A stretch of 64,000 nucleotides of DNA from Escherichia coli. Lineage in GTDB: Bacteria; Pseudomonadota; Gammaproteobacteria; Enterobacterales; Enterobacteriaceae. The translations under genes and the position numbers were made by a program. Below, one piece after another: positions 1-20,023 of this stretch. Each line of letters starts with the position of its first letter. Positions within the stretch are counted from its first letter, which is position 1. The notes below the pieces were generated by a model. The model saw only the letters and a program-made list of their open reading frames with translations, did no database searches and was not told the origin of the DNA. The DNA lies in NCBI RefSeq assembly GCF_050320075.1, contig NZ_CP190018.1; one strand, given 5' to 3'.

Positions 1-575
1 GAATTGATTTTAGAACTCGCAGGATTCGCGCTATTACTGGCCTTGTGTGATGTTGTATTGTTCCCTTCGCCCGCTCCAGAATCTCCCCAGGTGGAGAAGA
101 CTAAAAAAGTCTTCTCTGTCAGCAACTTAAACAGTTACCTATTTAATTTGCTTAGGAGTTCTACCATTGTGATCCGCCCTTAGTAACTGTCACGTTAAGT
201 TACACGGTGAGATGACAGTATAACCTAACGTTGGCGGCAGTTGCACCTCTCACACCGCGATAGCACAACGTGAAGATAAAGCCCATCCTGGCATTGTAAT
301 GTCATCGACAGACTGAACACACGCATTTAAGCCCGATGTGCGGCCTTGTGGCTGCGTAAACAGGTTTATGGTGATATTGGTCCTTGCAAACCATATGCAA
401 GCTCTATCAGCGTTTCAGCCACGCTCCCAACGGGTACACGGTTATCCTGATAAGGTGTGATCTTTCTGACAATCTGATGAAGTCGCTACGCTCCCGCTTG
501 TTGCTGTATCACCAACGGGGCTTTATGGTTTCTATTGTCTATAATAATCTCACAATTCCCCTGCATGAGGTTGAT

Positions 576-782
576 ATGACTGTTAGCTACAAGATTACTT
601 ATGAGCATAGAGACGGTGATCAAATTAGAATGGAAGAGGTTTTATTCCATTCAGAGCATGAACCAACAAAAGATGAAATTCATGATGCAGTAAGAAAAGA
701 TACTGTGAGATTTAATTCTCCATCTAATGGAGTAACGGCTGTTTCAGGGTTTAAAGTGATTTCGGTTGTCCCTGTTCCATGA
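576..782 (+). CDS. hypothetical small protein (68 aa); short form of ORF 384..782
   Basis: GAGG Shine-Dalgarno 5 nt upstream of ATG at 576; the longer form starting at 384 has no ribosome-binding site. No recognisable family. Confidence 0.35.
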   Translation: MTVSYKITYEHRDGDQIRMEEVLFHSEHEPTKDEIHDAVRKDTVRFNSPSNGVTAVSGFKVISVVPVP

Positions 783-815
783 ATGGTTATAGAAGGGGCT
801 GGAAGCCCCTAATTA

Positions 816-1136
816 TTACTTCTTAATATCGCCAGTGCATTGATATTCGATAGTCACAAGTGTTTGCATACAACCAGATGAAGAAGGTTGTGAACATTGA
901 GAAGTGAATCCACCAAAAGGCTCGGCTCCTGAATATCCCCAAGCGGCACAACGCGCTTTGGCTGCATTCATGCCTTGTTGTGGATCTACAACAGGGCTTT
1001 CAAACATACCGTAAGAATAACTCATCCTAACTGTGCCGTCTGATTTGCTTCCACCAGTTGGAACGAGTTGTTTTTTTGTTGCACATCCAGAAATAATCAA
1101 TGTTGAAGCAAGTAACAGCATTAAACTTTTGCGCAT
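816..1136 (-). CDS. putative lipoprotein (106 aa)
   Basis: N-terminal signal peptide with lipobox-like LIISGC in MRKSLMLLLASTLIISGCATKK; convergent with 576..782. Confidence 0.6.
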   Translation of the reverse strand: MRKSLMLLLASTLIISGCATKKQLVPTGGSKSDGTVRMSYSYGMFESPVVDPQQGMNAAKARCAAWGYSGAEPFGGFTSQCSQPSSSGCMQTLVTIEYQCTGDIKK

Positions 1137-1788
1137 GTAAATAATCCCAAGAGATAATGGTTATGTATTGATTTAAAGCGTTTTTAGATTAATGCATTAA
1201 CTTAGCAAAATTAAGTCTTTTCTGATTGTTTGCAGAGTAAAAATGAGTTGCTTTCGAAATTATTTCGGATGTTTATTGTATTACGGTTTTTCAAACCGTC
1301 TAACTATTGTCGCTATTGAATGGGCAATAATAGCAAGAGGATTCATTTCGTCATTGGAGGCAACAAAAAGTCGGTAACTAATAGCCACAACGAATGCAGC
1401 AATAACGAGAAAGCGGATAGTGCTAAGATGTTTTGAAGATAAATGCATAACGCCCCCTAAATGAATGTGAGGGGGATTAAATCATGCAAATTTGTTATGT
1501 GCAATACTGGTAATTTATCCTAATAGTCTACTATTCACCTCAATCTACGTCAACCAATATTTGATGTAGATTTAATTTTCTTTTAAAAACAATATGTTGC
1601 AATTTGTTGGATTTTTGGGTTAGGTTGTTTTTTGAACGTTTCCATCAAGTGTAAAGATACGTTTAGCCTTCATAGTGAGTTCAGTTACTGTCTTTTTATC
1701 TGAAATCGGCGCAAACGTGATCATCGCTTAACGAGAAGATCAGCGCCGTCAGGTCCACGCGGCGACAACTCTGAAATATCAGGAGGCA

Positions 1789-2346
1789 TTACGCTTCCTG
1801 CTCTTTCTTGATACGTTGCACCGTCTGTGTGCTGACACTGAAATCTTTTGCTACGCTCCGAATTGATCCACCATTCGCGAGAGCGGCAGCAATTCCTGCT
1901 CGATCAATTGCTTTTCCATTACCACGTTTTGCTATACGTCCAGCGGCCTTAGCTGCGGCGATCCCTTCACGTTGACGCTCAAGCATCATTTCACGTTCCA
2001 TTTGTGCCACTGCTGCAAGCACTGTGAGCATCATATTCCCTGCGGGAGAGTTCTTCCCTGTCTTAAAGTCTTCTTTATGGAAATGCACAGACACGCCGCG
2101 CTCTGTTAATTGCTCAACCGTTGCCAGTAGGTCGGCTGTATTACGGCAAAGTCGATCAATGCTGTGAACATGCAAAACATCACCTTCCCGCACATAGTTC
2201 ATCATTGCCTCAAACTGTGGGCGCTGGGTATTTTTGCCTGACGCTTTATCTTCAAAGACTTTATCAAGAGTTACTCCAGCTAATTGACGGTCTGTGTTTT
2301 GTTGGACAGTCGATACCCTAATGTATCCAATATTAGCCATTTTCAT
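1789..2346 (-). CDS. serine recombinase (resolvase / DNA invertase family)
   Basis: N-terminal IGYIRVSTVQQ catalytic-serine motif, 185 aa, C-terminal helix-turn-helix-like tail; typical small serine recombinase architecture. Confidence 0.85.
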   Translation of the reverse strand: MKMANIGYIRVSTVQQNTDRQLAGVTLDKVFEDKASGKNTQRPQFEAMMNYVREGDVLHVHSIDRLCRNTADLLATVEQLTERGVSVHFHKEDFKTGKNSPAGNMMLTVLAAVAQMEREMMLERQREGIAAAKAAGRIAKRGNGKAIDRAGIAAALANGGSIRSVAKDFSVSTQTVQRIKKEQEA

Positions 2347-3265
2347 TTTCCTTCTGTGTTGATTTGTGTGTAGTGATTATTGATCGTGTTGATTAGGTGT
2401 GTAAAGGACTTTTTTCACTACGAAATTCGAAGGTTTTTAGTGTGGTGATTTAGCCTGCTTTATCACTACACGTCTTGCATGAGAATCATGTAGTTACATT
2501 TTGGTAAAATTAGCAAGCTATTAAATAGTGTGTTTATTTTGAAAAAATAATTTTTTGTTGCATTAAAGGAAACTTGTTCAATAAATGATAGAACGTTTAT
2601 TGAGCAACAATTTTGCAGTGATGCGCTATATGCCGCATTACATAAGGCTTTGCTGATGATAATGTAAAAGTGAAGAAAGCTAACATTGCTCTTTTAAGCT
2701 ACTTTTCATTGAATTTTTAGTATGGAATTACATAGGGATAAACTATGAATATTCTATGATTTACACGAGATATTCTTGCTGTTTAATTCCGGCTTTGGAG
2801 ATCAGGCATTCGCAAGAATACGCTAACGCGTTGCCTGAAAAGCCATTGCACATAATAGAGGTGAGCGTATAGCGAACTATCAATGTGATCATTGCACGAA
2901 TGATAATGAGTGGATATAGATTCTATATATCGTTAGATTGTAGTTTGATAGTTAATGTGTAATGTAGATTGTATGAGCGTATAGCGAATGTTAGTTAGAT
3001 CAACAACAAACTAACCTTTAAATCTCTTTTATCTTCTCATAGATATGGCTATGCGTAGCAACCGAAGGTTAGCCAATCATCTCTATGCAGCCGTAAGGCT
3101 GTTTTGCATGTAATAGTTGTTTGTTGTTGTTAGACAGTTACCAATTTATAGATCAGAGATAGATGTGAGCGTTGAGCGATACACTAATCATAACAACATC
3201 TTCTTACTTTTTAGTTAGTTGTTAGTAGGTTATTGTTATGCGCGCTATTAGCGCATGTATAAAGG

Positions 3266-3371
3266 TATCATTTTTATCTAAAGGGCTTTAGACATTTTTG
3301 ATACCTTTTTCATCTCTAAAAAAGTGTAATTTTTATCTAAAGGGGCTTTAGACATTTTTTACACCTTTTTC
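3266..3371. repeat. two direct copies of a ~45 bp repeat, each with palindromic core TCTAAAGG(G)CTTTAGA
   Basis: Copy 1 ~3266..3311 and copy 2 ~3327..3371 are near-identical; cores at 3277..3292 and 3337..3353; extra TCTAAAG half-sites near 3412 and 3487. Operator- or iteron-like. Confidence 0.6.
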
Positions 3372-3515
3372 TGTGCAAGACACTTACCAGTGTGCACAAT
3401 ACTTATGCTTTTCTAAAGCCGGGAATTTTTAAGTTTGATTGATCAATTGTTAACTTTAAAAGTTACTTTTAACAATCACTTAGACGATCTAAAGCCGCAA
3501 TTAACATAATATAAG

Positions 3516-3545
3516 TTGACATGCAAGCACTTTTTACCGTATAGT
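3516..3545 (+). promoter_or_regulatory. sigma70-like promoter candidate (TTGACA, 18 nt spacer, TATAGT)
   Basis: Perfect -35 hexamer at 3516..3521, -10 TATAGT at 3540..3545; transcription would start at the 23 bp tandem repeat. Confidence 0.4.
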
Positions 3546-3553
3546 GCGGGTTT

Positions 3554-3604
3554 CCTACCTACCCAGGAAATGAGTTCCTACCTACCCAGGAAATGAGTTC
3601 CTAC
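3554..3604. repeat. 23 bp tandem repeat CCTACCTACCCAGGAAATGAGTT, about 2.2 copies
   Basis: Exact copies at 3554..3576 and 3577..3599, partial third copy (CCTAC) following. Confidence 0.75.
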
Positions 3605-4556
3605 AATACTATAATTAAACTACAATTAAACTATCTTTTATAAATTCTTTTATCTTTTAAAGAATAATTATAGGGATACCCGTTAGGGAGTCTTCGACTA
3701 TCCCTTAATCTATTGGCATTCGCCAGAACCTTGCACAAGTTAGACTGATGCTTGTCATAACAGATAGTTTTTGTTTTTTGTTAGTAGTTAGCTGATCTAT
3801 GTTCGCTTTCCGCTCACAACGAATATGTAATCTACTATGTGCAAATAGCCTACGGCTTGCGTATGGCTAATAGTCTTGCGCTGTGCGCAGAACGATAATT
3901 AACTAACTACCATCTAACGATTGAAATTTACTTGTGCAATAACCTGAGCATAAGCGAATGGTTGTTAGTGTCTATGCGCTGTGCGCTTCAATAGTTCCAT
4001 TGATGAGGCTTACGCCAATCTAACGATCATCAATCTATTTAAGAGAAAATCTATTGTGCAATACTCTGACGAGTGCAATAACCTTGTGTGCTACGCGTTA
4101 GCGATGTTAGCACATAGACACAGACAACAACCAACAACAAACAAAAAAGAAAGAATGGTTTTAGTAGTTGAAGGTTAAATAAGTTTCTACCGCTTAAATC
4201 AAGCCGTAGGCGAGCTAAACGTATATAAGGTAGGGAAACACTTAGCGGTAATAGATTAGCTCGTTATAGAGCTTCTGAGGAGCTTTACAGGTATTTTATA
4301 AGATGTCTGAAATCAGAGTTTATCTATCCACCATCTTTCCATCATCTGATAAATCAAAAATAAGCCCCTTAAATAAGCCTCTGACGAGATAAACAACCTC
4401 TACATAAGGGAATGTATTGTTTTTATCAAAACCCCCGTCAGAGTGCGATTGAGAGCGTTTTAGACAACAGGGAAGAATTGTACCAGAGTAGGCAGCACAA
4501 AAAGCTAAGAAAAATTATAAGAAATTGAAAATGATCAAGTTTTTTATAAAAGAGGG

Positions 4557-4585
4557 TTGACAAAGCCGCCGTTATGTAGTATTGT
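4557..4585 (+). promoter_or_regulatory. sigma70-like promoter candidate (TTGACA, 17 nt spacer, TATTGT) for the plus-strand operon
   Basis: -35 at 4557..4562, -10 at 4580..4585; first ORF of a co-directional gene string starts ~115 nt downstream. Confidence 0.5.
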
Positions 4586-4701
4586 AAGTAGGGAGGGGAG
4601 AAACATCTCTCTCCATCTAAATAATCAAATCACAGAACACTGCACTTTGAGCCGTCAGGCTGCAAGGTGTGTTTTTCTTTTATCTAAATAAGGAGTTTTT
4701 T

Positions 4702-4884
4702 ATGAAATGGTATACACCGGAACACGTCGTAGAGGCATTTAAAAAAGGTGAGCTAACACGACATCAAGTAAGGATGAACAGGAACACAGCGCGGCGCTGT
4801 GGTTATCCAGAGCGTGAAAAATGCTTTGACGATGCACTAAAAATTATTGATGAACTGCGTAAGGCAGAAGCAGAGAAAGAATAA
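4702..4884 (+). CDS. hypothetical small protein (60 aa)
   Basis: AGGAG 6 nt upstream of ATG 4702 (MKWYTPEHV...); first gene after promoter 4557. Confidence 0.5.
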   Translation: MKWYTPEHVVEAFKKGELTRHQVRMNRNTARRCGYPEREKCFDDALKIIDELRKAEAEKE

Positions 4885-4907
4885 TAACAGGAGAAGGAGA
4901 AAACCAA

Positions 4908-5084
4908 ATGAATATTAATTTTGATTCTGCAACTTATAACGCGTTGTTAAATCGTGCAAAGGCAGAAGGGAAATCAATTCCAAAACTTGTTAATGAATTA
5001 CTAATTACAGTCCTTACAAAGGAGGAACTAAATGAACCAAAACACCAAAACAATTGCCGAAGCAAAAGCGCAATGCCTCAATAA
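4908..5084 (+). CDS. ribbon-helix-helix-like small DNA-binding protein (58 aa), not in ORF track
   Basis: GGAGAAGGAGA before ATG 4908; MNINFDSATYNALLNRAKAEGKSIPKLVNELL resembles CopG/Arc-type RHH N-terminus; 3-prime end overlaps the next gene by 53 nt in another frame. Confidence 0.45.
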   Translation: MNINFDSATYNALLNRAKAEGKSIPKLVNELLITVLTKEELNEPKHQNNCRSKSAMPQ

Positions 5085-5697
5085 GAAAGATAGTAAACAA
5101 ACATATGTAGTAGTTGAACAATGGCTGAAGATGTTTAAAAAGTGGTTCTCACCGTCAGGTAAGGAATACACCGCGACACTTCCAGCCGTTGAAATCTACA
5201 GTTACGTAGCTGGGTTCAATGAACAAGGGCAAGAATGTTACGCCAATCAAAAAACATTAGCTAATATTGGAATGGTTAGTGATCGTCAGGTGCGTAATAT
5301 TATAAATATGTTTATTGATATGGGTGTTCTTTCTGTAGAGGCACGGGACGGGCAAACATCACTCTATAAAGCATTACCCTTTACAGATGCACACATCACA
5401 CCACCGGAAGACGTAAAAACCTCTGTAAACGTAGAACAGCCTGCACCTGAAACACAGGAACCGTTAGAAGCGACACACTCTATTGAGCAGGAAACACAGG
5501 CAGAAATCACGGAACAATCTGATCTTTTTACATGGCTTATTTCCATAGACAGCCAAAAGCCTATGCAAGAAGAAACAGAAAATTTTATAAAACGTGCACT
5601 GACCTCGAAGAGGATAATTCTTGAAGATGATGCTTTTAATGCACTGATGATAGCCCTGAGAAAAGAAAGTGAAATCTATGACTCAATACCATTTTAA
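5032..5697 (+). CDS. hypothetical protein with winged-helix-like N-terminus and acidic C-terminus; possible replication initiator or organiser
   Basis: Strong AAGGAGGA before ATG 5032; segment ANQKTLANIGMVSDRQVRNIINMFIDMGVLS resembles winged-helix DNA-binding domains of phage/plasmid Rep-type proteins. Assignment is by resemblance only. Confidence 0.45.
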   Translation: MNQNTKTIAEAKAQCLNKKDSKQTYVVVEQWLKMFKKWFSPSGKEYTATLPAVEIYSYVAGFNEQGQECYANQKTLANIGMVSDRQVRNIINMFIDMGVLSVEARDGQTSLYKALPFTDAHITPPEDVKTSVNVEQPAPETQEPLEATHSIEQETQAEITEQSDLFTWLISIDSQKPMQEETENFIKRALTSKRIILEDDAFNALMIALRKESEIYDSIPF

Positions 5698-5709
5698 GGA
5701 GAATAAAAA

Positions 5710-5967
5710 ATGAAATACAACCTGACATTAAACAAACGAACATTCGAAATTACAGAAAGCGGCTACACACTGGCAAAACAGCTTGCTGATAGCAATTATG
5801 AGCTACCCGCGATTATCAGCTTTCAGGAGTTACCTCATAGTAAAGAACACACACAGCACTGGTTAAATCACCTGAGCCATTTTGGGGTAATTAAGTATGA
5901 GGCTGTGAATAGTCAGACGTTCCGTTTGCTTGAGATAAGCCCTTTCGAATTGTGGGTGGCGCTGTGA
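5710..5967 (+). CDS. hypothetical protein (85 aa)
   Basis: ORF track; GGAG upstream; co-directional operon member. Confidence 0.5.
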   Translation: MKYNLTLNKRTFEITESGYTLAKQLADSNYELPAIISFQELPHSKEHTQHWLNHLSHFGVIKYEAVNSQTFRLLEISPFELWVAL

Positions 5968-6170
5968 CCATATTCGATAGCGAATTTTCACAAGAAACCT
6001 TTCTGCAATATTTACGGGAAAGAACGGGAATGATTCTGTTTGATTCTGAGTTTTCCGGTGTGGTAGGTGAGCAATTTTTATATGCTCTTCTCGATAGCCT
6101 AAGTAAACAAGGATTATTGCAGTATACCAAAACTCATATGAAAGCATTCAGAATCGACTCTGTAGCTTAA
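5952..6170 (+). CDS. hypothetical protein (72 aa, GTG start) with internal FDSEFS...FL.Y.L duplication
   Basis: ORF track; start codon is GTG overlapping the upstream stop; internal ~45 nt direct repeat at DNA level. Confidence 0.3.
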   Translation: MGGAVTIFDSEFSQETFLQYLRERTGMILFDSEFSGVVGEQFLYALLDSLSKQGLLQYTKTHMKAFRIDSVA

Positions 6171-6206
6171 AACAAACAACTATCAAACATCTTGAAGGGT
6201 GAAACA

Positions 6207-6347
6207 ATGGAAAGCTTAATATTTTTCTTAGTATTTATGATCGCTTCCTTTTTTAACACTGCAACAAGAAAAACAAAACGAAGGGGAAGCAATGAGCAAG
6301 AAAAAAGGCAAGAAAAACGTAATAACAACTATTGGCGAAGCATGTGA
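6207..6347 (+). CDS. candidate small single-pass membrane peptide (46 aa), not in ORF track
   Basis: ATG 6207 after AAGGG; MESLIFFLVFMIASFF hydrophobic helix then a basic tail (RKTKRRGS...); overlaps the start of ORF 6292 in another frame, so only one of the two may be real. Confidence 0.25.
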   Translation: MESLIFFLVFMIASFFNTATRKTKRRGSNEQEKRQEKRNNNYWRSM

Positions 6348-6672
6348 TCAGTATGCGTTAAACAATCCTCGCAAATATAATTATGAGCATGATGCACAAC
6401 CAGGCGAGGAATTGATCTTTATACTTGAAGAACCAAGCCCAGAATTAACAGACGAAGAATTATCACTCATTCAAAGTATGGACGGTGTTTACTTTAATCC
6501 GCGCCCACGCAAAACAACGGTTATAGATTCCAGTCTTCTGAAAAGATGGCAGTGTTTGGGTTTTCAGGATATGCACCACTTTAGGGGGTATATGGCTCTT
6601 AACAGTCTGCAATATGCAGGGGTGAGAGAAACCGAATTACTTCTGCTTGATAAAATAAAAATCGACGATTAA
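6292..6672 (+). CDS. hypothetical protein (126 aa)
   Basis: ORF track; AAGGGGA 5 nt upstream of ATG. Confidence 0.5.
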   Translation: MSKKKGKKNVITTIGEACDQYALNNPRKYNYEHDAQPGEELIFILEEPSPELTDEELSLIQSMDGVYFNPRPRKTTVIDSSLLKRWQCLGFQDMHHFRGYMALNSLQYAGVRETELLLLDKIKIDD

Positions 6673-6713
6673 CAGCGTTTGCTGAATATAACCCTTAACA
6701 AAAGGAAAATAAA

Positions 6714-6935
6714 ATGATTAACAAAGCAATTTTAGAGACAACCACTTTTCACGATCTTAAACTTCTTTCTGAATGCTTCATAAGCCTGATTGAACGTGCA
6801 CAGGAAGAAAACGATCTCGGTTTACTCGATGATATTATAGACAACATTGCAACTTATAAAATCCCGCTCACTATTGCTATGAAGAAAGCTCGTGAAGCAC
6901 AACAACAATTAGAACAATCAGAGGAAGTGGCATAA
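6714..6935 (+). CDS. hypothetical protein (73 aa)
   Basis: ORF track; AAGGAAA before ATG; co-directional. Confidence 0.45.
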   Translation: MINKAILETTTFHDLKLLSECFISLIERAQEENDLGLLDDIIDNIATYKIPLTIAMKKAREAQQQLEQSEEVA

Positions 6936-7243
6936 TGAGCGAAGTACACAACGTAACTATTGAAATGATGGATCTGGTTATTGATTTACAGAAAGCAGTA
7001 AACGCGGCTCTGACTTTTCCAAGCGAGCTAACCATCACACAGGCGGTTATTAATCTGGAATCGACGCGGGAAGCACTGCAACTACTTATTGCAGCGTGCG
7101 AAGAGAGCGAAGGTGCACAGATTGAAGCTGATGACCTTTCTAATCTGATCATCGTCATTCATGACACCACTGAAATCATGAAAGAAGCGGTAGCAGATCT
7201 GCAACCCCTCATTAATGAATTAATCGATAAGGCTAACAACTAA
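6935..7243 (+). CDS. hypothetical acidic protein (102 aa)
   Basis: ORF track; start overlaps upstream stop (ATAATG), suggesting translational coupling. Confidence 0.5.
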   Translation: MSEVHNVTIEMMDLVIDLQKAVNAALTFPSELTITQAVINLESTREALQLLIAACEESEGAQIEADDLSNLIIVIHDTTEIMKEAVADLQPLINELIDKANN

Positions 7244-7452
7244 TGTCAAAAACTAAACGTGTGCGCCTTCTGGCGCTCACAGAAGAAGGGAAAGCGGGTA
7301 ATTGTTTCACAGTAGGTAAAGTGTATACCGGCTTACTCGACACTTACACCCGCCTGATGCACGTAACCGATGATAACGGTAACGATCAAACAATCGTTTT
7401 AGATGGTAATTGCGTATTTGGTGAGTGGGAACTGACAACCGAAAAAAGTTGA
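7243..7452 (+). CDS. hypothetical protein (69 aa)
   Basis: ORF track; start overlaps upstream stop (TAATG). Confidence 0.5.
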   Translation: MSKTKRVRLLALTEEGKAGNCFTVGKVYTGLLDTYTRLMHVTDDNGNDQTIVLDGNCVFGEWELTTEKS

Positions 7453-7471
7453 AAATAATTGCATTTACCTA

Positions 7472-7500
7472 TTGACTTTTACTAACAGAAATGTTAGAAT
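7472..7500 (+). promoter_or_regulatory. near-consensus sigma70 promoter (TTGACT, 17 nt spacer, TAGAAT)
   Basis: -35 at 7472..7477, -10 at 7495..7500; followed by ~820 nt without any ORF of 60 codons or more on the plus strand. Confidence 0.55.
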
Positions 7501-7506
7501 AATAAA

Positions 7507-8291
7507 TGTTGGGTTTGGAATCGAAAATAGGTGTTAGCTGGCGTTAATCCTTCTCCCGATTCTAATCCTACACGAAAGCGGGGTAGACCTCAAGGGGTCG
7601 CGCCCTATCTAACCTATCCCGCTTTCCCTTTACAGTGATTTTTTAGAAATTGTTTCCCTCGTTAATAGTTTCATTTTATTTTCCTTATTGCTTTATCAAA
7701 ATTGTGTCTTAAGAATGCAGGGGCTACGGATTTGGCCCCTCATCTTTTTAACCAACTGCGAAGCATGAAACACTTTCTAAAAACACTGTTTACAGTGTCT
7801 ATAAACCCCGTATAAACAAATAACGGTGTATATCTGTTTCTTGACAACAGTTTTCTACTAAGCTTAAAGCTGAATATGTTTTTGTTTGTTGGTGTTTATT
7901 AAGGTGCCAATCTTAGAACGCGAAAGCGTGGATGATCCCCGAAATCATCTCGGCACCGCCTCCTATTAAAATGAGAATCCAAAAGGTTTGAAAGTTAATA
8001 GGTGATTCCTGAAAGTCTGATCGATGCATCCACATTGTGAAAGACAGCGATTAGCCGTCGCACGAATAACAGGTTTATAGATTCCTCTCCAAAGGGGGCG
8101 ACCTCCTAAGCGCCTACTCCCTGTAAGCCTGTTATTCACCCCTCAAGGGTATATAACAATAAGCAATCTTATTCTTATATGTCCTCCTCTTTAAGTTCAT
8201 ATAAACTGCGATTTAGTAACACTCTATAACATCCTTCAAATGTTGTATTCATAAAGCCGGAAGCTTTCCCCTTCCGGTTTTATTTTTATCA
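7507..8291 (+). ncRNA. candidate structured leader or noncoding RNA region
   Basis: ORF-poor; stem-loops at 7575..7626 (GAAAGCGGG / CCCGCTTTC), 7719..7749 (AGGGGC, 10 nt loop, GCCCCT then T-run) and 8065..8136 (AATAACAGG / CCTGTTATT); ends at terminator 8257..8291. Boundaries and function are inferred. Confidence 0.3.
8257..8291 (+). terminator. rho-independent terminator-like hairpin (CCGGAAG, loop, CTTCCGG, then T-run)
   Basis: Inverted repeat with following TTTTATTTTTAT, just upstream of the 8331 ORF. Confidence 0.5.
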
Positions 8292-8330
8292 GCACTAAAC
8301 AAGACTGTTAGGAATAAAGGTAAAGCAATA

Positions 8331-8546
8331 ATGCAAAATCTCATTCTAAAGAATGGTAACGAAGAATTGGTTATCACTGATGAAACATTCAATGCTACGG
8401 CTTATATGCTGGGGATCACTCCCACAGAATTGAAAAAACATTGTGATAAGCTTTTTAAGTCTGCTGATGAACAGAAACCTACTATGCAGGATCTGATTAA
8501 AGCAAAAGCAGAACAAATCAAACAATCCAAAAAAGGAAACTATTAA
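8331..8546 (+). CDS. hypothetical protein (71 aa)
   Basis: ORF track; immediately precedes the capsid-like gene pair. Confidence 0.5.
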   Translation: MQNLILKNGNEELVITDETFNATAYMLGITPTELKKHCDKLFKSADEQKPTMQDLIKAKAEQIKQSKKGNY

Positions 8547-8548
8547 TT

Positions 8549-8920
8549 ATGGCTATTATTAATATGAGCGATCTGTTTCCAGTTCGCAAATCATTTACCG
8601 ATATCGTTTCATATGCAACTGATGAGTTCGGTTGTGTGCAATCTTTTACCGTTGATCTGGCGGTTGATGTTGAATGCGGCGATCTGATTACCAGTGACGG
8701 CGCTGAATATGTAAGCGGCGGCGATGTTCTTGTAGTTGTGTCTGATGCGGTATCCGCTGGCGACGCTAAAACCGTTAACGTGCTGCGTAGCAATGCCGGA
8801 CTGGTTTGCATCAAGTCCGATGCTCTGAATGTTGAAGGCGCTGTGAAAGAAGCTGCTATTGCTGCCCTGGCTGCAAAAGGTTTCCAGATGGCTGGTTTTA
8901 ACACTGTATTCACATCTTAA
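8549..8920 (+). CDS. putative virion structural protein (123 aa), possibly head-decoration-like
   Basis: Small Gly/Ala/Val-rich protein directly upstream of and coupled to the 342 aa gene; codon usage is strongly biased toward highly-expressed E. coli codons. Resemblance to a lambda D-type decoration protein is by size and arrangement only. Confidence 0.4.
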   Translation: MAIINMSDLFPVRKSFTDIVSYATDEFGCVQSFTVDLAVDVECGDLITSDGAEYVSGGDVLVVVSDAVSAGDAKTVNVLRSNAGLVCIKSDALNVEGAVKEAAIAALAAKGFQMAGFNTVFTS

Positions 8921-8938
8921 TATAAAGGAATAAAAATA

Positions 8939-9967
8939 ATGATTATTGGTAATGAATCCGTCGATCTGGCTCCGCTGTTTAGTCTGCACGACTCTCGCAA
9001 CTTCCTGTTAACTTCTCTCGACTTTACTGATCCGGTAGGTGTGAGTTCTCATAAAGTGGCTGTTAGCCAACTGGTGGAAACTAACGAATCTCTGTTCAAC
9101 AAAGAAACCTCTCGTTTCTCTTCTGAACATAACGTGACTAAACGTGAACAGGGTAAAGAATTTTTAGTAGAGATCCCCTACTTCCTGCGTGAAGATATGA
9201 TTAAGCCGCAAGACGTGCAAGGCAAACGTAAACCAGGCGCTACCGTTGAAGAAACTCTGACAGATATCTACGCGGAATATGTTGCTAAGCACCACATTGC
9301 TTTCCAGCGTACTAAAGAAAGCGTGCTGGCTGCTTCCCTGTTCTCTGGTCGCACTTACACCCCTAAAACTGATGATGTGCTGATCCAGTGGGGCGATCTG
9401 TTTAGTGTTGTTCCGATGACTGCAACCATCGACGCATCAAGCACCACGCCTTCTATGGTGTTCCAGCAATTCGATCAGATGCATACAGACGTTATTACTA
9501 AAGCACAAAGCCAGGCGGCTGCTGTAGAACGTATCGTTGTATTCTGTAAACCTGCTGCTTTCAACGCTATCCGTTACAGTGCTGGCATGGTTAACGCGTT
9601 CCAGTATGCAAGCCCTACCGATGACGCAAACATCGTTTATAGCGTGCGCTCCCTGCTGCCAGGTGTGACTACCTTCACTATTCCTGGGACTAACATCGAT
9701 ATCGTTAAAGTTACTGATCCGCTGCTGCTGGCTCATATGACTTCTGATGCGGTTGCTGTTCCGAAGTTCGCTAAAGGCTCTAACGTCTATCAGAACATTT
9801 TCAGCGCTCCTTCTTCAACGTTCGACCTGCTGAATTCTGGCGCGGCTGAATATTACAGCTATGCGTTTAGCCCAGCACGTAACGACGCTGTAAACGTAGT
9901 TACTGAGAATAGCCAGATGGTTGTAAACCACGGCGTAGGCTTCACTGTACAGATCACAGTAGCGTAA
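8939..9967 (+). CDS. putative major capsid-like protein (342 aa)
   Basis: Size and position (after a ~120 aa protein) resemble a lambda D/E-type head gene pair; AAGGAA RBS; codons strongly optimised (CGT, CTG, TCT, AAC, GAA) unlike neighbouring genes. Not confirmed by homology. Confidence 0.45.
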   Translation: MIIGNESVDLAPLFSLHDSRNFLLTSLDFTDPVGVSSHKVAVSQLVETNESLFNKETSRFSSEHNVTKREQGKEFLVEIPYFLREDMIKPQDVQGKRKPGATVEETLTDIYAEYVAKHHIAFQRTKESVLAASLFSGRTYTPKTDDVLIQWGDLFSVVPMTATIDASSTTPSMVFQQFDQMHTDVITKAQSQAAAVERIVVFCKPAAFNAIRYSAGMVNAFQYASPTDDANIVYSVRSLLPGVTTFTIPGTNIDIVKVTDPLLLAHMTSDAVAVPKFAKGSNVYQNIFSAPSSTFDLLNSGAAEYYSYAFSPARNDAVNVVTENSQMVVNHGVGFTVQITVA

Positions 9968-10120
9968 TAAAGCGTTAATAGTCGTTTCCTGTGCGACTGG
10001 AAATAAAACAGGCAATAAGGGCAAAAGGGATTATTAAACCTGTAGCGCAAATACAGTAAACAATCTCTTTTGCCCTTTTTTCGTTTATACCGTCTATTAA
10101 AATATTGTGAGAGAAAAATC

Positions 10121-10312
10121 ATGAGCGAACAAAACAACAATCCAGTTGAGATCCTGAAAGCTGTTTCCACCTTACCGGAAGATATTCTGAATATCTCTCA
10201 AGTGTGTAAGTTTTTAGGGATCTCTAATACTGCTGTACGTCAAAGAATCTTCACTACTGGCTGCTCAGCTATGGAAGCAGTGCAATACTACGTAACAAAA
10301 CAAAACAAATAA
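10121..10312 (+). CDS. hypothetical small protein (63 aa), possible HTH
   Basis: Internal ATG of ORF 10070..10312 (MSEQNNNPVEIL...); segment ISQVCKFLGISNTAVRQRI is helix-turn-helix-like. Confidence 0.35.
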   Translation: MSEQNNNPVEILKAVSTLPEDILNISQVCKFLGISNTAVRQRIFTTGCSAMEAVQYYVTKQNK

Positions 10313-10330
10313 AAGGTAAAGGAAAATATT

Positions 10331-12172
10331 ATGGATTTAAACATCTCAACCTTAACAAACAAGGTTGTATTTAAAGTTGATTTTGCATCATTACAGAAAG
10401 CAAGGGACGCAGGGAAGAAATTTCAGAAAGAAATGGAAAACCTAACCAATCCAACATTGAAAGGGAAGAAGGCTAAACGAGCTATAGACGAGGCTCATGA
10501 TCTGGTAAAGGCTCGTAAAGCTGCACAGGCTAAAACTGATGCCAAAGCGTCAGACAAGCAAGCTCAAACCGATAAGAAGAACGCTGATAAGGTGGCAAAG
10601 GCAGAAGCTAAAGCGAAGGCTAAAGCCGCTATAGCTGCCGATAAACAGATCCGCGCTAAAGCGACAATAGCAGAGAAAGCAGAGATTAAGCGCCAGCAAG
10701 CTTTCAGACAGCTTGAAGGGATTAAGAAAGGGCGTATGGGCGACGGTATGGACTCCGCCCAATACTACAAAACGTTGCAATACATCAAAGCACAAACGGC
10801 AGCGTATGAGAAAGGCGCTATTAGTCAGGCTAAGATGAATCACCTGATCCGTGATCGTATCACGTTAGAACGCCGTGCGGCTGCTGTAAAAGCTCGCCAG
10901 GTGGCGGCTGATGGCGGTAAATATCCACATATGGCTAAACAGCTTAAAGGCGGTCATATAGGCGGTGGTGTAGGTGCAATGGTGGGCGGTGCCGCTCTCA
11001 CTGCTGCCACTCTCGGCGGTGCTGCGATATTCAATACCGTAACCGATCAGGCAAGCAAGATCACAGACACTAACCGCAAGGCAAAGGCTGTCAACGTAAA
11101 CACTAACGCCCTGTTAGCACTTAATCAGTACGGCTTAGAACACGGTGTCGATAGTTCCGTAGACCAACGTCAAGACAACCTTAAAGACGTTCAAGAGCGT
11201 TTAGGTGAATCCGTAGGGAATACCAAATGGGACGCTAAGAAAGGTCGCTGGGCTGGCGGTAATGGTGCCGTCGATAACATCCTTAATAAATATGGTTGGA
11301 GTCCTGAACAGATTAAAGGTTTCCAGACTGATCCATTAGGTTTCCTGGGCGCTGTAGTGAAAGAAGGAGAACGCCGTGGACTCTCTGATCAGGAGCAGGG
11401 TCACATCCTTGAAGACCTTGGAAATGATTTACAATATTTCCGTGGTGCTTTCAGTCGTAACGGTGAAGAGCTAAATAAAACCATCGTTAAGATGCAAAAA
11501 GCCAATGCCACCTATGCGCAAGCGGATCTTGACGCTGCTGAACGTCTGCAAGCTGTACAGGCTAATATGAATATGGCCTGGGAAGGTAGTAAGAAAGCTA
11601 TCATGACGGGATTCGGTGAAGAGTTCGACGCTCAGGCTGGTGAAGAGTGGGCGCAAATGTTGAAAGATCTCAATCCTCTGTTTAAAGAACTTGGAAGCTC
11701 AACGGCTGAAATGATGAGCGCCTTTGCTGGTGCTGTATCGTGGCTTACTGCTGCATACCAGAATATAAATCCAGAGAACAAACATGAAAACCTTGATTCG
11801 TCCGGTATGTATTATAAGGATTCGTTTGTAGGCGGCATGGTTGATTGGGGTCGTAGTGCTTTAGGCTTATCGCCTATCCCTGGCACGGAAGACAAGCCAA
11901 CGACTGGCGGAACTGCAATTCAGAACTATTCAAGCCCGTCCGATAACGTGCAATCCCTGAAAGAGAACGTTAGCCGTGATCTGAACACTACCCCATCTAT
12001 GACGTATGCGCCAAGCATTGTCGTAAACGTGCCAGAAAGTAAGGTTGATGTGAATATCGCTCCTGATGGTAGTCAGCTTGGATCATACCTCGATTACAAA
12101 GTGGGAAGTATCCAACAAGATTTTGAACGTAGTTTCACGTTGGCGGCTCTGTCTGGGCAAGCACCAAGTTAA
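10331..12172 (+). CDS. large coiled-coil / glycine-zipper protein (613 aa); tape-measure-, scaffold- or DNA-pilot-like
   Basis: Lys/Ala-rich coiled-coil stretch (KAKAKAAIAADKQIRAKATIAEKAEIKRQQ), then glycine-zipper hydrophobic segment GGHIGGGVGAMVGGAALTAATLGGAAIF. Function inferred from composition only. Confidence 0.5.
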   Translation: MDLNISTLTNKVVFKVDFASLQKARDAGKKFQKEMENLTNPTLKGKKAKRAIDEAHDLVKARKAAQAKTDAKASDKQAQTDKKNADKVAKAEAKAKAKAAIAADKQIRAKATIAEKAEIKRQQAFRQLEGIKKGRMGDGMDSAQYYKTLQYIKAQTAAYEKGAISQAKMNHLIRDRITLERRAAAVKARQVAADGGKYPHMAKQLKGGHIGGGVGAMVGGAALTAATLGGAAIFNTVTDQASKITDTNRKAKAVNVNTNALLALNQYGLEHGVDSSVDQRQDNLKDVQERLGESVGNTKWDAKKGRWAGGNGAVDNILNKYGWSPEQIKGFQTDPLGFLGAVVKEGERRGLSDQEQGHILEDLGNDLQYFRGAFSRNGEELNKTIVKMQKANATYAQADLDAAERLQAVQANMNMAWEGSKKAIMTGFGEEFDAQAGEEWAQMLKDLNPLFKELGSSTAEMMSAFAGAVSWLTAAYQNINPENKHENLDSSGMYYKDSFVGGMVDWGRSALGLSPIPGTEDKPTTGGTAIQNYSSPSDNVQSLKENVSRDLNTTPSMTYAPSIVVNVPESKVDVNIAPDGSQLGSYLDYKVGSIQQDFERSFTLAALSGQAPS

Positions 12173-12228
12173 TGATAAAGAGAATGTTTAATCACCATTT
12201 AAAACACTCTTATAAGGAATTAAGCATA

Positions 12229-12259
12229 TAAGAGGCTCCCATTACAAGGAAGCCTCTTT
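12229..12259. terminator. bidirectional terminator-like hairpin between convergent 613 aa gene and integrase
   Basis: Inverted repeat AGAGGCT(CC) ... (GGA)AGCCTCT flanked by A/T-rich runs. Confidence 0.4.
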
Positions 12260-12279
12260 ATTGCGCCTATGGCGTTGTT

Positions 12280-13441
12280 TTAAGCCTTAAAATCAATATT
12301 TAATTCATATCTTACTAATTCTACATATTCAGCTAATTCTGGAATGCTTGCCCCTTGTGAGTAGGTGCGAAAGGCTTCTGTTTTAGCTCTCTGCTCTGTA
12401 TGTCCGGTAATGGCACCGATCCGCTGTTCAGGCACTCCGGCACGATCAAGACAAGTGATAAACATCCCGCGCAAGCTGTGAAAGCATTGTCTATTTGTAG
12501 CGATTGGCAAGACGCTACGACGTAAACGTGAGAACGCTTGAGAATAGAACGGGCCTTTCTTACCGTCGATTCTTTTTACTTTGTTCGAGTGAGGGAACAA
12601 ATATTCACCATAATTATGATTTAAATATTCATCGACAATAATCGATAGTCTCGAATGTATCGGAACGTGCCTGATCCCTGCTTTAGTCTTACTTTTGCTG
12701 ATATAAAAACAGCGTATTCCTTCCACAGTTACAACCTCTGACTTTTTCAGACTTGCCAGTTCGTCTAATCTGCATCCTGAAAACAAGCCCATTAAAATAA
12801 TATTTCTGATCTCCGGCTCCGCTGCATCAAGTAGCTTTTGCATTTGTTCAGGTGTAAACGGTTGATAACTCTCGATTGTGCGACGTGCTTCGAGATTATG
12901 ACCGTGAAAAGGGTTACTGTCTGGTATTCCGTCATAACGGCGTTTAGCAAATTCATAGAGCGATCCTAAGCATGTAAGCCAGTTTTGACGAGATTGATCG
13001 GCTGCTCCTCGTTGCTTCTGGTCATCTAAGAATACTGTTACAAGCCGTCTGCCTATTTTCTCAATATGAATATCATCTTTCTGAATGCTTTGTAAAAATA
13101 GCTCAACGGCCCTTGCTGATTTCTGTAGTGTTGAGTATGAACGACGCTCTCTGTAGCATTCGGCGTATTCGTCACGTATTAAGCATAGGGAAGGCGATGC
13201 ATAACCGCGTTTTACGGCTCTTTGCGTGTTTTTATTGGCCCTTGCCTCTGAATGTAAGGATTCAATAGCTTGTTGTAACCTCCTTTCGGGGTTATCAGGA
13301 TTATGTTTCCGCTTTAGTTCCTCCCATTCTAATAATAGATGGTTTCTGAATCTTCTCGCCTCATTCAGATCTCGTGTAGATGTGCTTTTTCTCCACAACT
13401 TGTAAGGGTAAAGATGACGTAAGTATTTAGGAACAAAAATC
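12280..13441 (-). pseudogene. tyrosine recombinase / integrase with 5-prime end disrupted by IS1
   Basis: C-terminal catalytic motifs of tyrosine recombinases (R in GCRLDEL, HSLRGMF, GHTEQ...FRTYSQG). The ORF's first 5 codons (to 13455) lie inside the IS1 inverted repeat, so the native start and promoter are missing. Confidence 0.8.
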
Positions 13442-13496
13442 GGTGATGCTGCCAACTTACTGATTTAGTGTATGATGGTGTTTTTGAGGTGCTCCA

Positions 13497-13772
13497 GTGG
13501 CTTCTGTTTCTATCAGCTGTCCCTCCTGTTCAGCTACTGACGGGGTGGTGCGTAACGGCAAAAGCACCGCCGGACATCAGCGCTATCTCTGCTCTCACTG
13601 CCGTAAAACATGGCAACTGCAGTTCACTTACACCGCTTCTCAACCCGGTACGCACCAGAAAATCATTGATATGGCCATGAATGGCGTTGGATGCCGGGCA
13701 ACCGCCCGCATTATGGGCGTTGGCCTCAACACGATTTTCCGCCATTTAAAAAACTCAGGCCGCAGTCGGTAA
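13497..13772 (+). CDS. insA: IS1 InsA
   Basis: 91 aa product matches remembered IS1 InsA ([32 protein letters not shown]...). Confidence 0.95.
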
Positions 13773-14194
13773 CCTCGCGCATACAGCCGGGCAGTGACGT
13801 CATCGTCTGCGCGGAAATGGACGAACAGTGGGGATACGTCGGGGCTAAATCGCGCCAGCGCTGGCTGTTTTACGCGTATGACAGGCTCCGGAAGACGGTT
13901 GTTGCGCACGTATTCGGTGAACGCACTATGGCGACGCTGGGGCGTCTTATGAGCCTGCTGTCACCCTTTGACGTGGTGATATGGATGACGGATGGCTGGC
14001 CGCTGTATGAATCCCGCCTGAAGGGAAAGCTGCACGTAATCAGCAAGCGATATACGCAGCGAATTGAGCGGCATAACCTGAATCTGAGGCAGCACCTGGC
14101 ACGGCTGGGACGGAAGTCGCTGTCGTTCTCAAAATCGGTGGAGCTGCATGACAAAGTCATCGGGCATTATCTGAACATAAAACACTATCAATAA
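13691..14194 (+). CDS. insB: IS1 InsB reading frame (expressed as InsAB by frameshift)
   Basis: 167 aa ORF overlapping insA in the -1 frame, typical IS1 organisation. Confidence 0.9.
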
Positions 14195-14478
14195 GTTGGA
14201 GTCATTACCCTTTGGCTATGAATAATTCTGATTTGACGAATCCAGAGGACTTATAGATCACTGTCTCCGGTTTAATAACTTGAATATAATCTAATTCTAA
14301 TATTTTAAACGCCTAATGATTTTTCAACACGGGTGTTATTCTGCTTACGCAAAAATTTTATTTTTAATTATATTTCATTATTATTTCATCAATGTATTCT
14401 TTGGATTTTGCTTATAATAATAATGGAAGGGATGATTATAAATGAATGCGTTATTGCATTTACACTCAGGATGAATAT

Positions 14479-15111
14479 ATGGGAAAGATTAAAATTGTAG
14501 TTTCAGATCAGCAGCCGTTTATGATTGATGGGATAATTGGATTTCTCGGACATTATCCCGATTTATATGAGGTTGTTGGGGGCTATAAAGATCTGAAGAA
14601 AGCTATCGCGGAGTGTAACAAATCTGCAGCCCAAATATTTATTTTAGGAGAATTTGCAGGTGGAATGATGGGGTCCGAACTCATAAAATGGGTTAAATCG
14701 CATAAAATAGATGCTCATATTATTACATTTGTAGCAAAAATGCCGTATATTGATTCAATAAAATTGCTTGAAGCCGGTGCGAAAGGATGCGTATGGAAAA
14801 CCAGTCATCCGGCGAAACTAAATCGCGCTATTGATTCGATTAGTAATGGTTACACTTATTTTGATAGTGTACATATGGATTGTGAAAAAATATCTTCAAG
14901 ATATTCCTCTGATAATCAACTTACAAATCGTGAGTCTGAAATACTACAACTCATAGCTGATGGGAAAACAAACAAAGAAATCGCTAATTTCTTGCAGTTA
15001 AGCAGGAAAACAGTCGAAACTCATAGACTCAATATCATGAAGAAATTAGATGTTCACAGTGGTATCGAGTTGATCAAAACAGCTTTACGTATGGGTGTTT
15101 GCACTATATAA
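14479..15111 (+). CDS. ygeK: LuxR-family response regulator (ETT2 remnant)
   Basis: 210 aa from [12 protein letters not shown]; C-terminal LuxR-type HTH ([39 protein letters not shown]). Confidence 0.8.
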
Positions 15112-15129: not shown

Positions 15130-15633
15130 TTATTTTGCTAAAGCCTTACGCTTGTCTATTTCATTAAGTCTGGTATATACAACATATATTTTTTTTGCAT
15201 ATTGCAGCCTCTTTTTTTTGTTTTCCATTGCAAAACCCGCGTTATATGTCCCCAGACATTGCCACGTTACCCCACAACGTGAAAAATGATTATATAAAAT
15301 CTCGGTCCCTATTTTAATGTTCAGACAGGGGTTATCTAACAAATCTCGTCCATCTTTTATTATTCCACGTTTTTTTAACATGGGAATGTGCATCTGGTTT
15401 ATCTGCATTAAACCATAATCAACACTCTTTATATTGTTTTTCTTATCCCTGTTTTTGCCGATGCTATCATTTTTTAAATTACTTTCAACAAGAGCGATAG
15501 CTTTGATCAAATTTGGTTCGATTCTGAAAATTGATCCTGCTTCATTAAAGCAAGCGCTACTGGCGAAAGACATTTTTGTAATTAATATAGAAAACATGAA
15601 GATGGATAAGATTTTAACTTTGGGTAAGCGCAT
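15130..15633 (-). CDS. pbl: IagB-like lytic transglycosylase (T3SS-associated)
   Basis: Signal peptide plus soluble lytic transglycosylase motifs (ALVESN..., GLMQIN, TYNAG). Confidence 0.8.
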   Translation of the reverse strand: MRLPKVKILSIFMFSILITKMSFASSACFNEAGSIFRIEPNLIKAIALVESNLKNDSIGKNRDKKNNIKSVDYGLMQINQMHIPMLKKRGIIKDGRDLLDNPCLNIKIGTEILYNHFSRCGVTWQCLGTYNAGFAMENKKKRLQYAKKIYVVYTRLNEIDKRKALAK

Positions 15634-15716
15634 ATATTTTTATGTGTAGGATTGAAGGAAAGGAACGAGATACTAATATATTCAGTATCTCGTTAATCAT
15701 TTAAGTGGTCAATTAT

Positions 15717-15935
15717 CTACCATTCCAGTTCATAGTAAGGAGAGATAGGATTATCTTTCGAATACATATCATTTTGAAAAGATGCCATCCATGTTGAAAC
15801 TATAAATGCTTGTATTTGATCTGTATCAGTAGTACTGGTGGTGATGTGTTTATCTAATGAAACGACTTCATCACCCGTTGCGGTTGCTATATTTAAACTT
15901 TGAGAAAAATTATTCATATTGATTGGATTAGTCAT
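15717..15935 (-). CDS. ygeI: hypothetical ETT2 protein (72 aa)
   Basis: Size and position match remembered ygeI between pbl and ygeH. Confidence 0.55.
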   Translation of the reverse strand: MTNPINMNNFSQSLNIATATGDEVVSLDKHITTSTTDTDQIQAFIVSTWMASFQNDMYSKDNPISPYYELEW

Positions 15936-16102
15936 AAAATTCCCTTTTTTATTTGTCCAGGCCAATAGCCTATACACAATACTTTTTAATCTAGAGTATT
16001 TGATATATATTGCAATAAGGTAATTATCTTAGATGTTTTCATCTCTGTTGTTGACATAACCAGTTGCATACATCTAAACAATAAAATTGCGACAATAAAG
16101 AT

Positions 16103-19875: not shown

Positions 19876-20023
19876 TACATGATATTTTGCATTGCAAGGT
19901 GATATCTAAAATGAAAGATGTTGATCAAAACTTTGATGCTTTATACTGGCATATACTACAAGCATATTTAATTTTATTGTTTTATGATTAACGAGGTTCC
20001 ATCTTTTTATTATCTATTTAAGT

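Follow-up and report, generated by a model that had tools for sequence, protein, structure and literature searches.

The junction considered here lies within a window of 64,000 nucleotides (the whole stretch of DNA that was analysed) from Escherichia coli YZLc1-3, an isolate from chicken faeces in Yangzhou; window position 1 corresponds to position 1084605 of the chromosome record NZ_CP123240.1. A complete IS1 is found between the shortened integrase gene of a phage-like island integrated at glyU and the remnant of ETT2, and the DNA on both of its flanks is in the standard chromosomal order and orientation, from actS-glyU to yqeG-kduI. The features of the region, in window coordinates, are these:

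61..13441: glyU-integrated phage-like island of 13.4 kb ('element 2'), its right end cut by IS1.
61..78, plus strand: left attachment repeat of that island, a copy of the glyU 3' end (TTCCCTTCGCCCGCTCCA), adjoining the right end of a second island.
12280..13441, minus strand: tyrosine integrase gene int2 without its first 59 nt (20 codons, MSIKSQAYLFKRKDGIWMFQ).
13433..13441, plus strand: left flank of IS1 (ACAAAAATC), the inherited junction; equivalent to position 20000 of the U1 locus (L011).
13442..14209, plus strand: complete IS1 (IS1B type) of 768 bp with intact insA and insB'.
13442..13464, plus strand: IS1 left inverted repeat.
13497..13772: insA ORF, inside IS1.
13691..14194: insB' ORF, inside IS1.
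13748..13754, plus strand: AAAAAAC (A6C) programmed -1 frameshift motif, between insA and insB'.
14187..14209, plus strand: IS1 right inverted repeat, directly beyond which the newest deletion begins.
14210..14256, plus strand: last 47 bp, TAG stop included, of the gene between orgA and ygeK (WP_019842356.1 in relatives).
14479..15111, plus strand: ygeK, a LuxR-type regulator and the first retained ETT2 gene.

The element starts with GGTGATGCTGCCAACTTACTGAT and finishes with ...ATCAATAAGTTGGAGTCATTACC, and its inverted repeats agree at 18 of 23 positions. Its length, its 23-bp imperfect terminal repeats and the insA/insB' pair with an A6C site are those of the IS1 family, and PGAP labels the ORFs as an IS1B-family transposase with programmed frameshift (WP_095033700.1). 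The IS1 copies of Ec-U3, of the assembly GCA_050489405.1 (here L014), of ZJ3920 and of 19AR0656 are identical to it at 768 of 768 positions. Its 9-bp flanks, ACAAAAATC on the left and CTTTGGCTA (14210..14218) on the right, agree at one position of nine. The initial annotation had described a complete IS1 with differing 9-bp flanks, and that description is exact; a matching duplication, which would have spoken against it, was absent from either flank, also when a shifted repeat of 8-9 bp was sought. The missing target-site duplication excludes an unaltered simple insertion, but not membership of IS1.

The window and the RefSeq/GenBank record differ at two bases, 13703 (C in the window, T in the record) and 28273 (G and A, respectively). 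The first of these is IS1 position 262, where the change is silent in insA; T is found in the record and in a further assembly, L015, and C in the window, L014 and Ec-U3. The T, if real, could hint at exchange with another IS1 copy, but the difference is of a single base and may be one of polishing. Neither base affects the deletion described below.

To the left of the element, int2 has lost its start. Intact copies of the gene, in ZJ3920 (L002 6081..7301) and AH50 (L009 16481..17701), begin with GTG and encode 406 amino acids, in which Pfam places a DUF6538 domain at residues 8-61, a SAM-like domain at 117-188 and the catalytic Phage_integrase domain at 217-370. The part that remains in YZLc1-3 is 100% identical to these copies, and all DNA upstream of codon 21, including the native start and promoter, is replaced by IS1. 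The removal of the integrase start, as first proposed, can thus be put at 59 nt and 20 codons, and with them go 13 of the 54 residues of the N-terminal DUF6538 domain, about a quarter. A search for an intact integrase start elsewhere on the chromosome detected none.

The int2 ORF as annotated (12280..13455, minus strand; 391 amino acids) reaches 14 nt into the left end of IS1. PGAP lists it as an intact 391-aa protein, WP_252148749.1, with a TTG start within the IS1 left inverted repeat, so that 14 nt of its coding sequence (five codons, read MAASP, of which TTG is the first) belong to IS1. This intact-gene call is an artefact that hides the truncation of the integrase, and we flag it as an annotation error. 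No good ribosome-binding site was found upstream of the weak TTG start, and a promoter scan from IS1 outward into int2 returned the inward promoter of IS1 itself but no promoter-like site directed at int2. We infer from these two results that int2 expression has probably been lost.

The island to which int2 belongs (window 61..13441) is 99.86% identical to AH50 L009 4255..17642. Its genes, as classified with PHROGs, include those for a Hin-type DNA invertase, a replication-initiator-like protein, a major head protein and a tape-measure-like protein, and it also encodes a YecR-like lipoprotein and int2. In AH50 the island is bounded by 22-bp direct repeats of the glyU 3' end (TCGATTCCCTTCGCCCGCTCCA) at L009 4251-4272 and 17787-17808, the right-hand one 86 bp past the int2 start. 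Homology of the window to AH50 and Ec-U3 begins at position 61, within their glyU gene; the left attachment repeat is kept in YZLc1-3, and the right repeat falls within the deleted interval. Both features of a functional mobile island are lacking, namely a complete integrase with its own start and promoter and attachment repeats at both ends. The island has very probably been immobilised, and site-specific excision should no longer be possible, mainly because the right attachment repeat is gone and also because int2 is without its start, its promoter and part of its N-terminal DNA-binding domain. The initial annotation had already suggested immobilisation, from the state of the integrase; the stronger reason, the deletion of the right repeat, had not been seen.

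Two integrases are present at the locus, as a second island of about 19 kb lies upstream in glyU itself, in tandem with the first (window 1..60 together with NZ_CP123240.1 1065461..1084665; L005 25462..44666). Besides its own integrase it carries antirepressor, BRO, DUF927 primase-like, SSB and ProQ/FinO genes, as well as three large ORFs (2.1-2.8 kb) that have no annotation; the adjacent glyU is still annotated as an intact tRNA-Gly(CCC). The integrases of the two tandem islands are 21% identical, so that of the neighbour is unlikely to substitute for int2.

Two further observations concern the 13.4-kb island. Its segment at window 2347..4668 (about 2.3 kb, from the invertase gene to the first small ORFs) contains no annotated gene in YZLc1-3, AH50 or O26:H11, and a single ORF of 65 amino acids is listed there. 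The same island is present in O26:H11 FWSEC0001 (L010 17943..26452) with a 100% identical int2 and with an extra block inserted before the GH15 gene, made up of a gene for a 535-aa site-specific integrase, a DUF4145 gene, a Rha regulator and an IS66-family element; ETT2 begins in that genome only at a truncated eivJ.

To the right of the element, the 47-bp remnant belongs to a gene for which a Pfam search gave no match and which is named here by its position upstream of ygeK. The native 222-bp intergenic region upstream of ygeK is intact, and it is followed by ygeK, pbl, ygeI, ygeH, ygeG and yqeK-yqeH, beside yqeG, a retained regulator and chaperone half of ETT2 that is 100% identical to that of Ec-U3 over 21.9 kb. 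The eiv, epa and epr apparatus operons are all absent between IS1 and ygeK. ETT2 in YZLc1-3 would accordingly be reduced to its regulator half, ygeK to yqeH.

The extent of the missing DNA is given by U1, which shares the chromosomal lineage of YZLc1-3. Both IS1 flanks are collinear there and lie 19,478 bp apart, at L011 20000 and 39479, the latter being the position of CTTTGGCTA, the flank of the derived junction; the right flank is 100% identical. On the left, the interval holds the first 59 nt of int2, the 22-bp right attachment repeat, a GH15 glycoside hydrolase gene and a ghoT-like gene. These are followed by eivF, eivG (sctC), eivE, eivA (sctV), eivC (sctN), eivI and eivJ, and then by epaO-S, two regulator genes, eprH-K, orgA and the next gene except for its last 47 bp. 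The apparatus genes that had been expected beside ygeK in intact islands are exactly those missing. The proposed comparison with genomes holding intact ETT2 or the intact element, run with U1, AH50 and ZJ3920, confirmed the deletion, and the collinearity of flanks 19,478 bp apart in U1 upholds the original view that deletion or recombination accounts for the junction better than simple insertion.

To address relocation of the interval, the chromosome was searched with a composite query in which a 1.3-kb window segment, serving as anchor, was combined with three 400-bp probes from the gap. Only the anchor matched in the YZLc1-3 chromosome, and none of the three probes did; the controls behaved as expected, with four places in ETEC genomes and two in Ec-U3. 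The absence of all three probes from the rest of the chromosome argues that the DNA was deleted rather than moved.

The two junctions differ in their distribution. When both were searched in 5,426 complete E. coli genomes, YZLc1-3 alone matched, and the right junction CTTTGGCTA is private to it in this set. An exact-protein look-up, which draws on public assemblies, found the 391-aa IS1-int2 fusion ORF in identical form in 52 blocks of assemblies; the left junction is thus an inherited one. The int2-IS1 junction is common to L014, L015 and L017, and the same left context is present in 19 further contigs (L017 and 18 similar places), L017 itself ending inside IS1.

L014 is the most informative of these relatives. 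Its identity to the window is 100% along 7,930 bp, through the right end of IS1, and its junctions read ACAAAAATC, IS1, GCGATCGAC. The last of these sequences is from the interior of eivI, and L014 shows no target-site duplication. YZLc1-3 is not the ancestor of L014, since L014 keeps DNA that is missing from YZLc1-3. The right IS1 junction of L014, at about 29918 in U1 L011, is the same as that of Ec-U3. In Ec-U3, identity to the window is 100% over 21.9 kb on the right and over 2.5 kb on the left; its left junction is at window 2587/2588, and window 2588..13441 (10,854 bp) is lost. Both IS1 junctions of Ec-U3 are private to it among complete genomes. An apparent match between the left flank in the window and the IS1 flank of Ec-U3 was rejected, because the alignment had been extended there by chance (CAATAAATG versus CAAAAATC).

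These comparisons give an order of events. L014 is an intermediate, to which YZLc1-3 corresponds after a rightward loss of 9,562 bp (L008 10439..20000) and Ec-U3 after a leftward loss of 10,854 bp. Because Ec-U3 shares the right junction of L014 but has lost the DNA on its left, the same IS1 has shed DNA on both sides in sister lines; and as L014 is itself without a duplication, it was preceded by one or more earlier events that removed about 9.9 kb. The 19,478-bp gap thus arose in two steps or more; its left junction is inherited and its right junction is the younger of the two, a stepwise history that was not visible to the initial annotation.

In the first step, as the comparisons show, an IS1 located between int2 and eivI in a U1-like ancestor with an AH50-type island came to abut int2 codon 21 on the left and the interior of eivI on the right. 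About 9.9 kb went in the process, comprising the int2 start and the right attachment site, the genes for GH15 and the ghoT-like product, eivF, eivG, eivE, eivA and eivC, and the 5' part of eivI; this state is extant in GCA_050489405.1. In the second step, the line leading to YZLc1-3 lost another 9,562 bp, from the right end of IS1 exactly to a point 47 bp short of the stop codon of the gene that precedes ygeK. The DNA absent from YZLc1-3 on this count is the rest of eivI, eivJ, epaO-S, the two regulator genes, eprH-K and orgA.

Other IS1 copies at the locus give a measure of what an ordinary insertion looks like here. Clean duplications of 8-9 bp flank the IS1 copies of ZJ3920 (GACTTTTCT), MSI001 (CACCTCATC), SW071618 (AAAAAATG) and 19AR0656 (CACGTTTTT), so the absence of one in YZLc1-3 is informative and not a reading error. 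The copies without a duplication are those of YZLc1-3, Ec-U3 and TOE3, each of which spans a different deletion. In TOE3 (L007, NZ_CP069086.1) the element at 10467..11234 lies between an intact int2 and yqeG with unlike flanks (AATAAAAAG versus GATGATGTC), and nothing of ETT2 remains, so that the locus provides a third IS1-bounded deletion of independent origin.

An IS1 at the 3' end of eivC (sctN), at 15288..16055 in FDAARGOS_448 (L012) and B19429 (L013), provides a comparison of another sort. In eight genomes of the FDAARGOS_448 type it has the duplication CGAATTGTT, and in B19429 its left junction is identical while its right junction is 107 bp further on; the 107-bp loss is a small adjacent deletion in natural isolates. 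This IS1 was considered as the original insertion of YZLc1-3 and rejected, as its nine genomes belong to a related but distinct lineage, with a flank that is 98.9% identical. Common descent of the two elements is possible but unproven, and the pair is used here as a precedent only.

A complete insertion sequence with one inherited junction, a new junction at its terminus and no target-site duplication is the classical signature of an adjacent deletion. In YZLc1-3 the IS1 is intact, one junction is shared with relatives, the other begins exactly at the IS1 terminus, and the interval is absent from the chromosome; no ancestor with an ordinary duplication at either junction of the IS1 at 13442..14209 was found. 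Since the IS1 is intact, its transposase could act. The element would move to a neighbouring target on the same DNA molecule, in such a way that IS1 itself and one old junction are kept, the intervening DNA is discarded and no target-site duplication is left. We regard it as probable that a long-resident IS1 bridges a deletion made in at least two steps, each of them most likely a transposase-driven adjacent deletion. Missing duplications are usually the result of adjacent deletion or of recombination between IS copies (PMC11708052), and intramolecular replicative transposition is a recognised route to IS-adjacent deletions (PMC9330008).

The second step might instead have been a RecA-dependent crossover between the resident int2 IS1 and a second IS1 in the same direction at CTTTGGCTA, with loss of 9.6 kb and one IS1, a course of events that is possible and that we consider rather unlikely. 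Adjacent deletion and RecA-dependent recombination between two same-direction copies lead to the same product, one IS1 with unrelated flanks. The structural identity of the two outcomes is documented (PMC11708052), and several observations give the crossover some plausibility: about 20 IS1 copies are present in the genome, the AT-rich region upstream of ygeK attracts IS1, as seen in a simple insertion in SW071618 only 17 bp away (duplication AAAAAATG), and the C/T difference at IS1 position 262 between window and record could reflect mixing of copies. The crossover implies that an IS1 with the duplication CTTTGGCTA once existed, with ...GATTCTTTGGCTA joined to its left end, and it requires one extra insertion event. 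An IS1 at CTTTGGCTA was found in 0 of the 5,426 genomes, and the sign of a chimera is lacking, the element being base for base that of the intermediate L014. Adjacent deletion, probable as against the unlikely crossover, is favoured on these two grounds, because it needs fewer events, and because the eivC IS1 pair of the FDAARGOS_448 type and B19429 offers a natural precedent, a short one-sided loss from a single IS1 that recombination explains poorly.

A different reading would give the junction a role of its own. The IS1-int2 fusion might be functional, either because truncated int2 is expressed from IS1-derived signals and is active, or because the fixed IS1 is a preferred chromosomal entry point for resistance DNA. 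The fusion ORF is unchanged across dozens of assemblies, and the adjacent IS1 has repeatedly remodelled the DNA on its other side, with two nested deletions and, in L015, a resistance module. We consider this reading improbable; if it were true, the junction would have to be regarded as a functional hotspot rather than a scar. The contig in question (L015, GCA_050489245.1, JBKQDL010000004.1, locus 1..5960) keeps the int2-IS1 junction and has on the other side a resistance-type module in which an MFS efflux gene has a TetR-family gene on either side. The module also encodes an IS26-type transposase and a class A beta-lactamase of 291 amino acids, and at a distance of 3.7 kb there is a partial IS1 fragment in inverted orientation.

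Collapse of two IS1 copies during assembly, with the intervening 19.5 kb dropped, is very unlikely. IS1 is present in multiple copies, the assembly on record is in its second version, and window and record do differ at one base within the IS1 at 13442..14209; but the 19.5 kb are missing from the whole chromosome and not misplaced, the left junction recurs in many independent assemblies, more than one sample is reported for the contig with the full YZLc1-3 arrangement, and long reads easily span a repeat of 768 bp. A simple insertion with a decayed duplication, or an inversion or translocation between IS1 copies that relocated the missing DNA, can scarcely be credited, as nothing besides the bare absence of a duplication speaks for it, while the flanks agree at one position in nine and map 19.5 kb apart in relatives, both are in normal chromosomal order, and the gap probes are absent from the chromosome.

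The stepwise adjacent deletion that we favour makes this locus a fully reconstructed natural example of the erosion of a genomic island in both directions by one insertion sequence. It also illustrates that an insertion sequence can strand a neighbouring mobile island by taking its attachment site together with the start of its integrase. In avian strains the ETT2 regulators reportedly influence flagella, biofilm and virulence (PMC11068852), and YZLc1-3 is a poultry isolate with a form of ETT2 that keeps only the regulator half. The junction sequence can be used as a clonal marker.

IS1-associated deletions are textbook biology, and adjacent deletions mediated by IS1 were reportedly described in the gal region of E. 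coli K-12 by Reif and Saedler in 1975. IS-associated deletions are also known from evolving E. coli, and those at IS150 grow stepwise in the long-term evolution experiment (PMC11708052). As in these cases, the insertion sequence at the locus described here is complete, the deletion runs from its exact terminus, one junction is inherited, no duplication is present and the loss grew stepwise. Unlike the laboratory deletions, the YZLc1-3 case comes from natural isolates, with losses in both directions from one IS1 in sister lineages and a putative role of the transposase.

ETT2, beside glyU, is known for mutational attrition and for multiple deletion isoforms (PMC11068852; PMC7058095), and IS transposases have been noted in the cluster (PMC11068852). 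The form in YZLc1-3 resembles these isoforms in its location by glyU, in the loss of eiv, epa and epr with retention of ygeK, ygeH, yqeH and yqeI, and in the presence of IS elements in the cluster. The isoforms listed for avian strains have right-end deletions of 4.99, 5.68 or 8.74 kb (PMC11068852), whereas the loss in YZLc1-3 is of 19.5 kb and continues past ETT2 into the integrase and attachment site of the neighbouring island. That island, in turn, is like other stranded tRNA islands in its insertion at a tRNA gene, in the repeats of the tRNA 3' end that bound intact copies and in the tyrosine integrase beside one of them; in contrast to gradual decay by point mutation, its right repeat and int2 start appear to have been lost together in a single IS1-associated event. 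The YZLc1-3 junction is in these respects a well-resolved instance of a known process, the ordinary decay of genomes, rather than a new kind of system.
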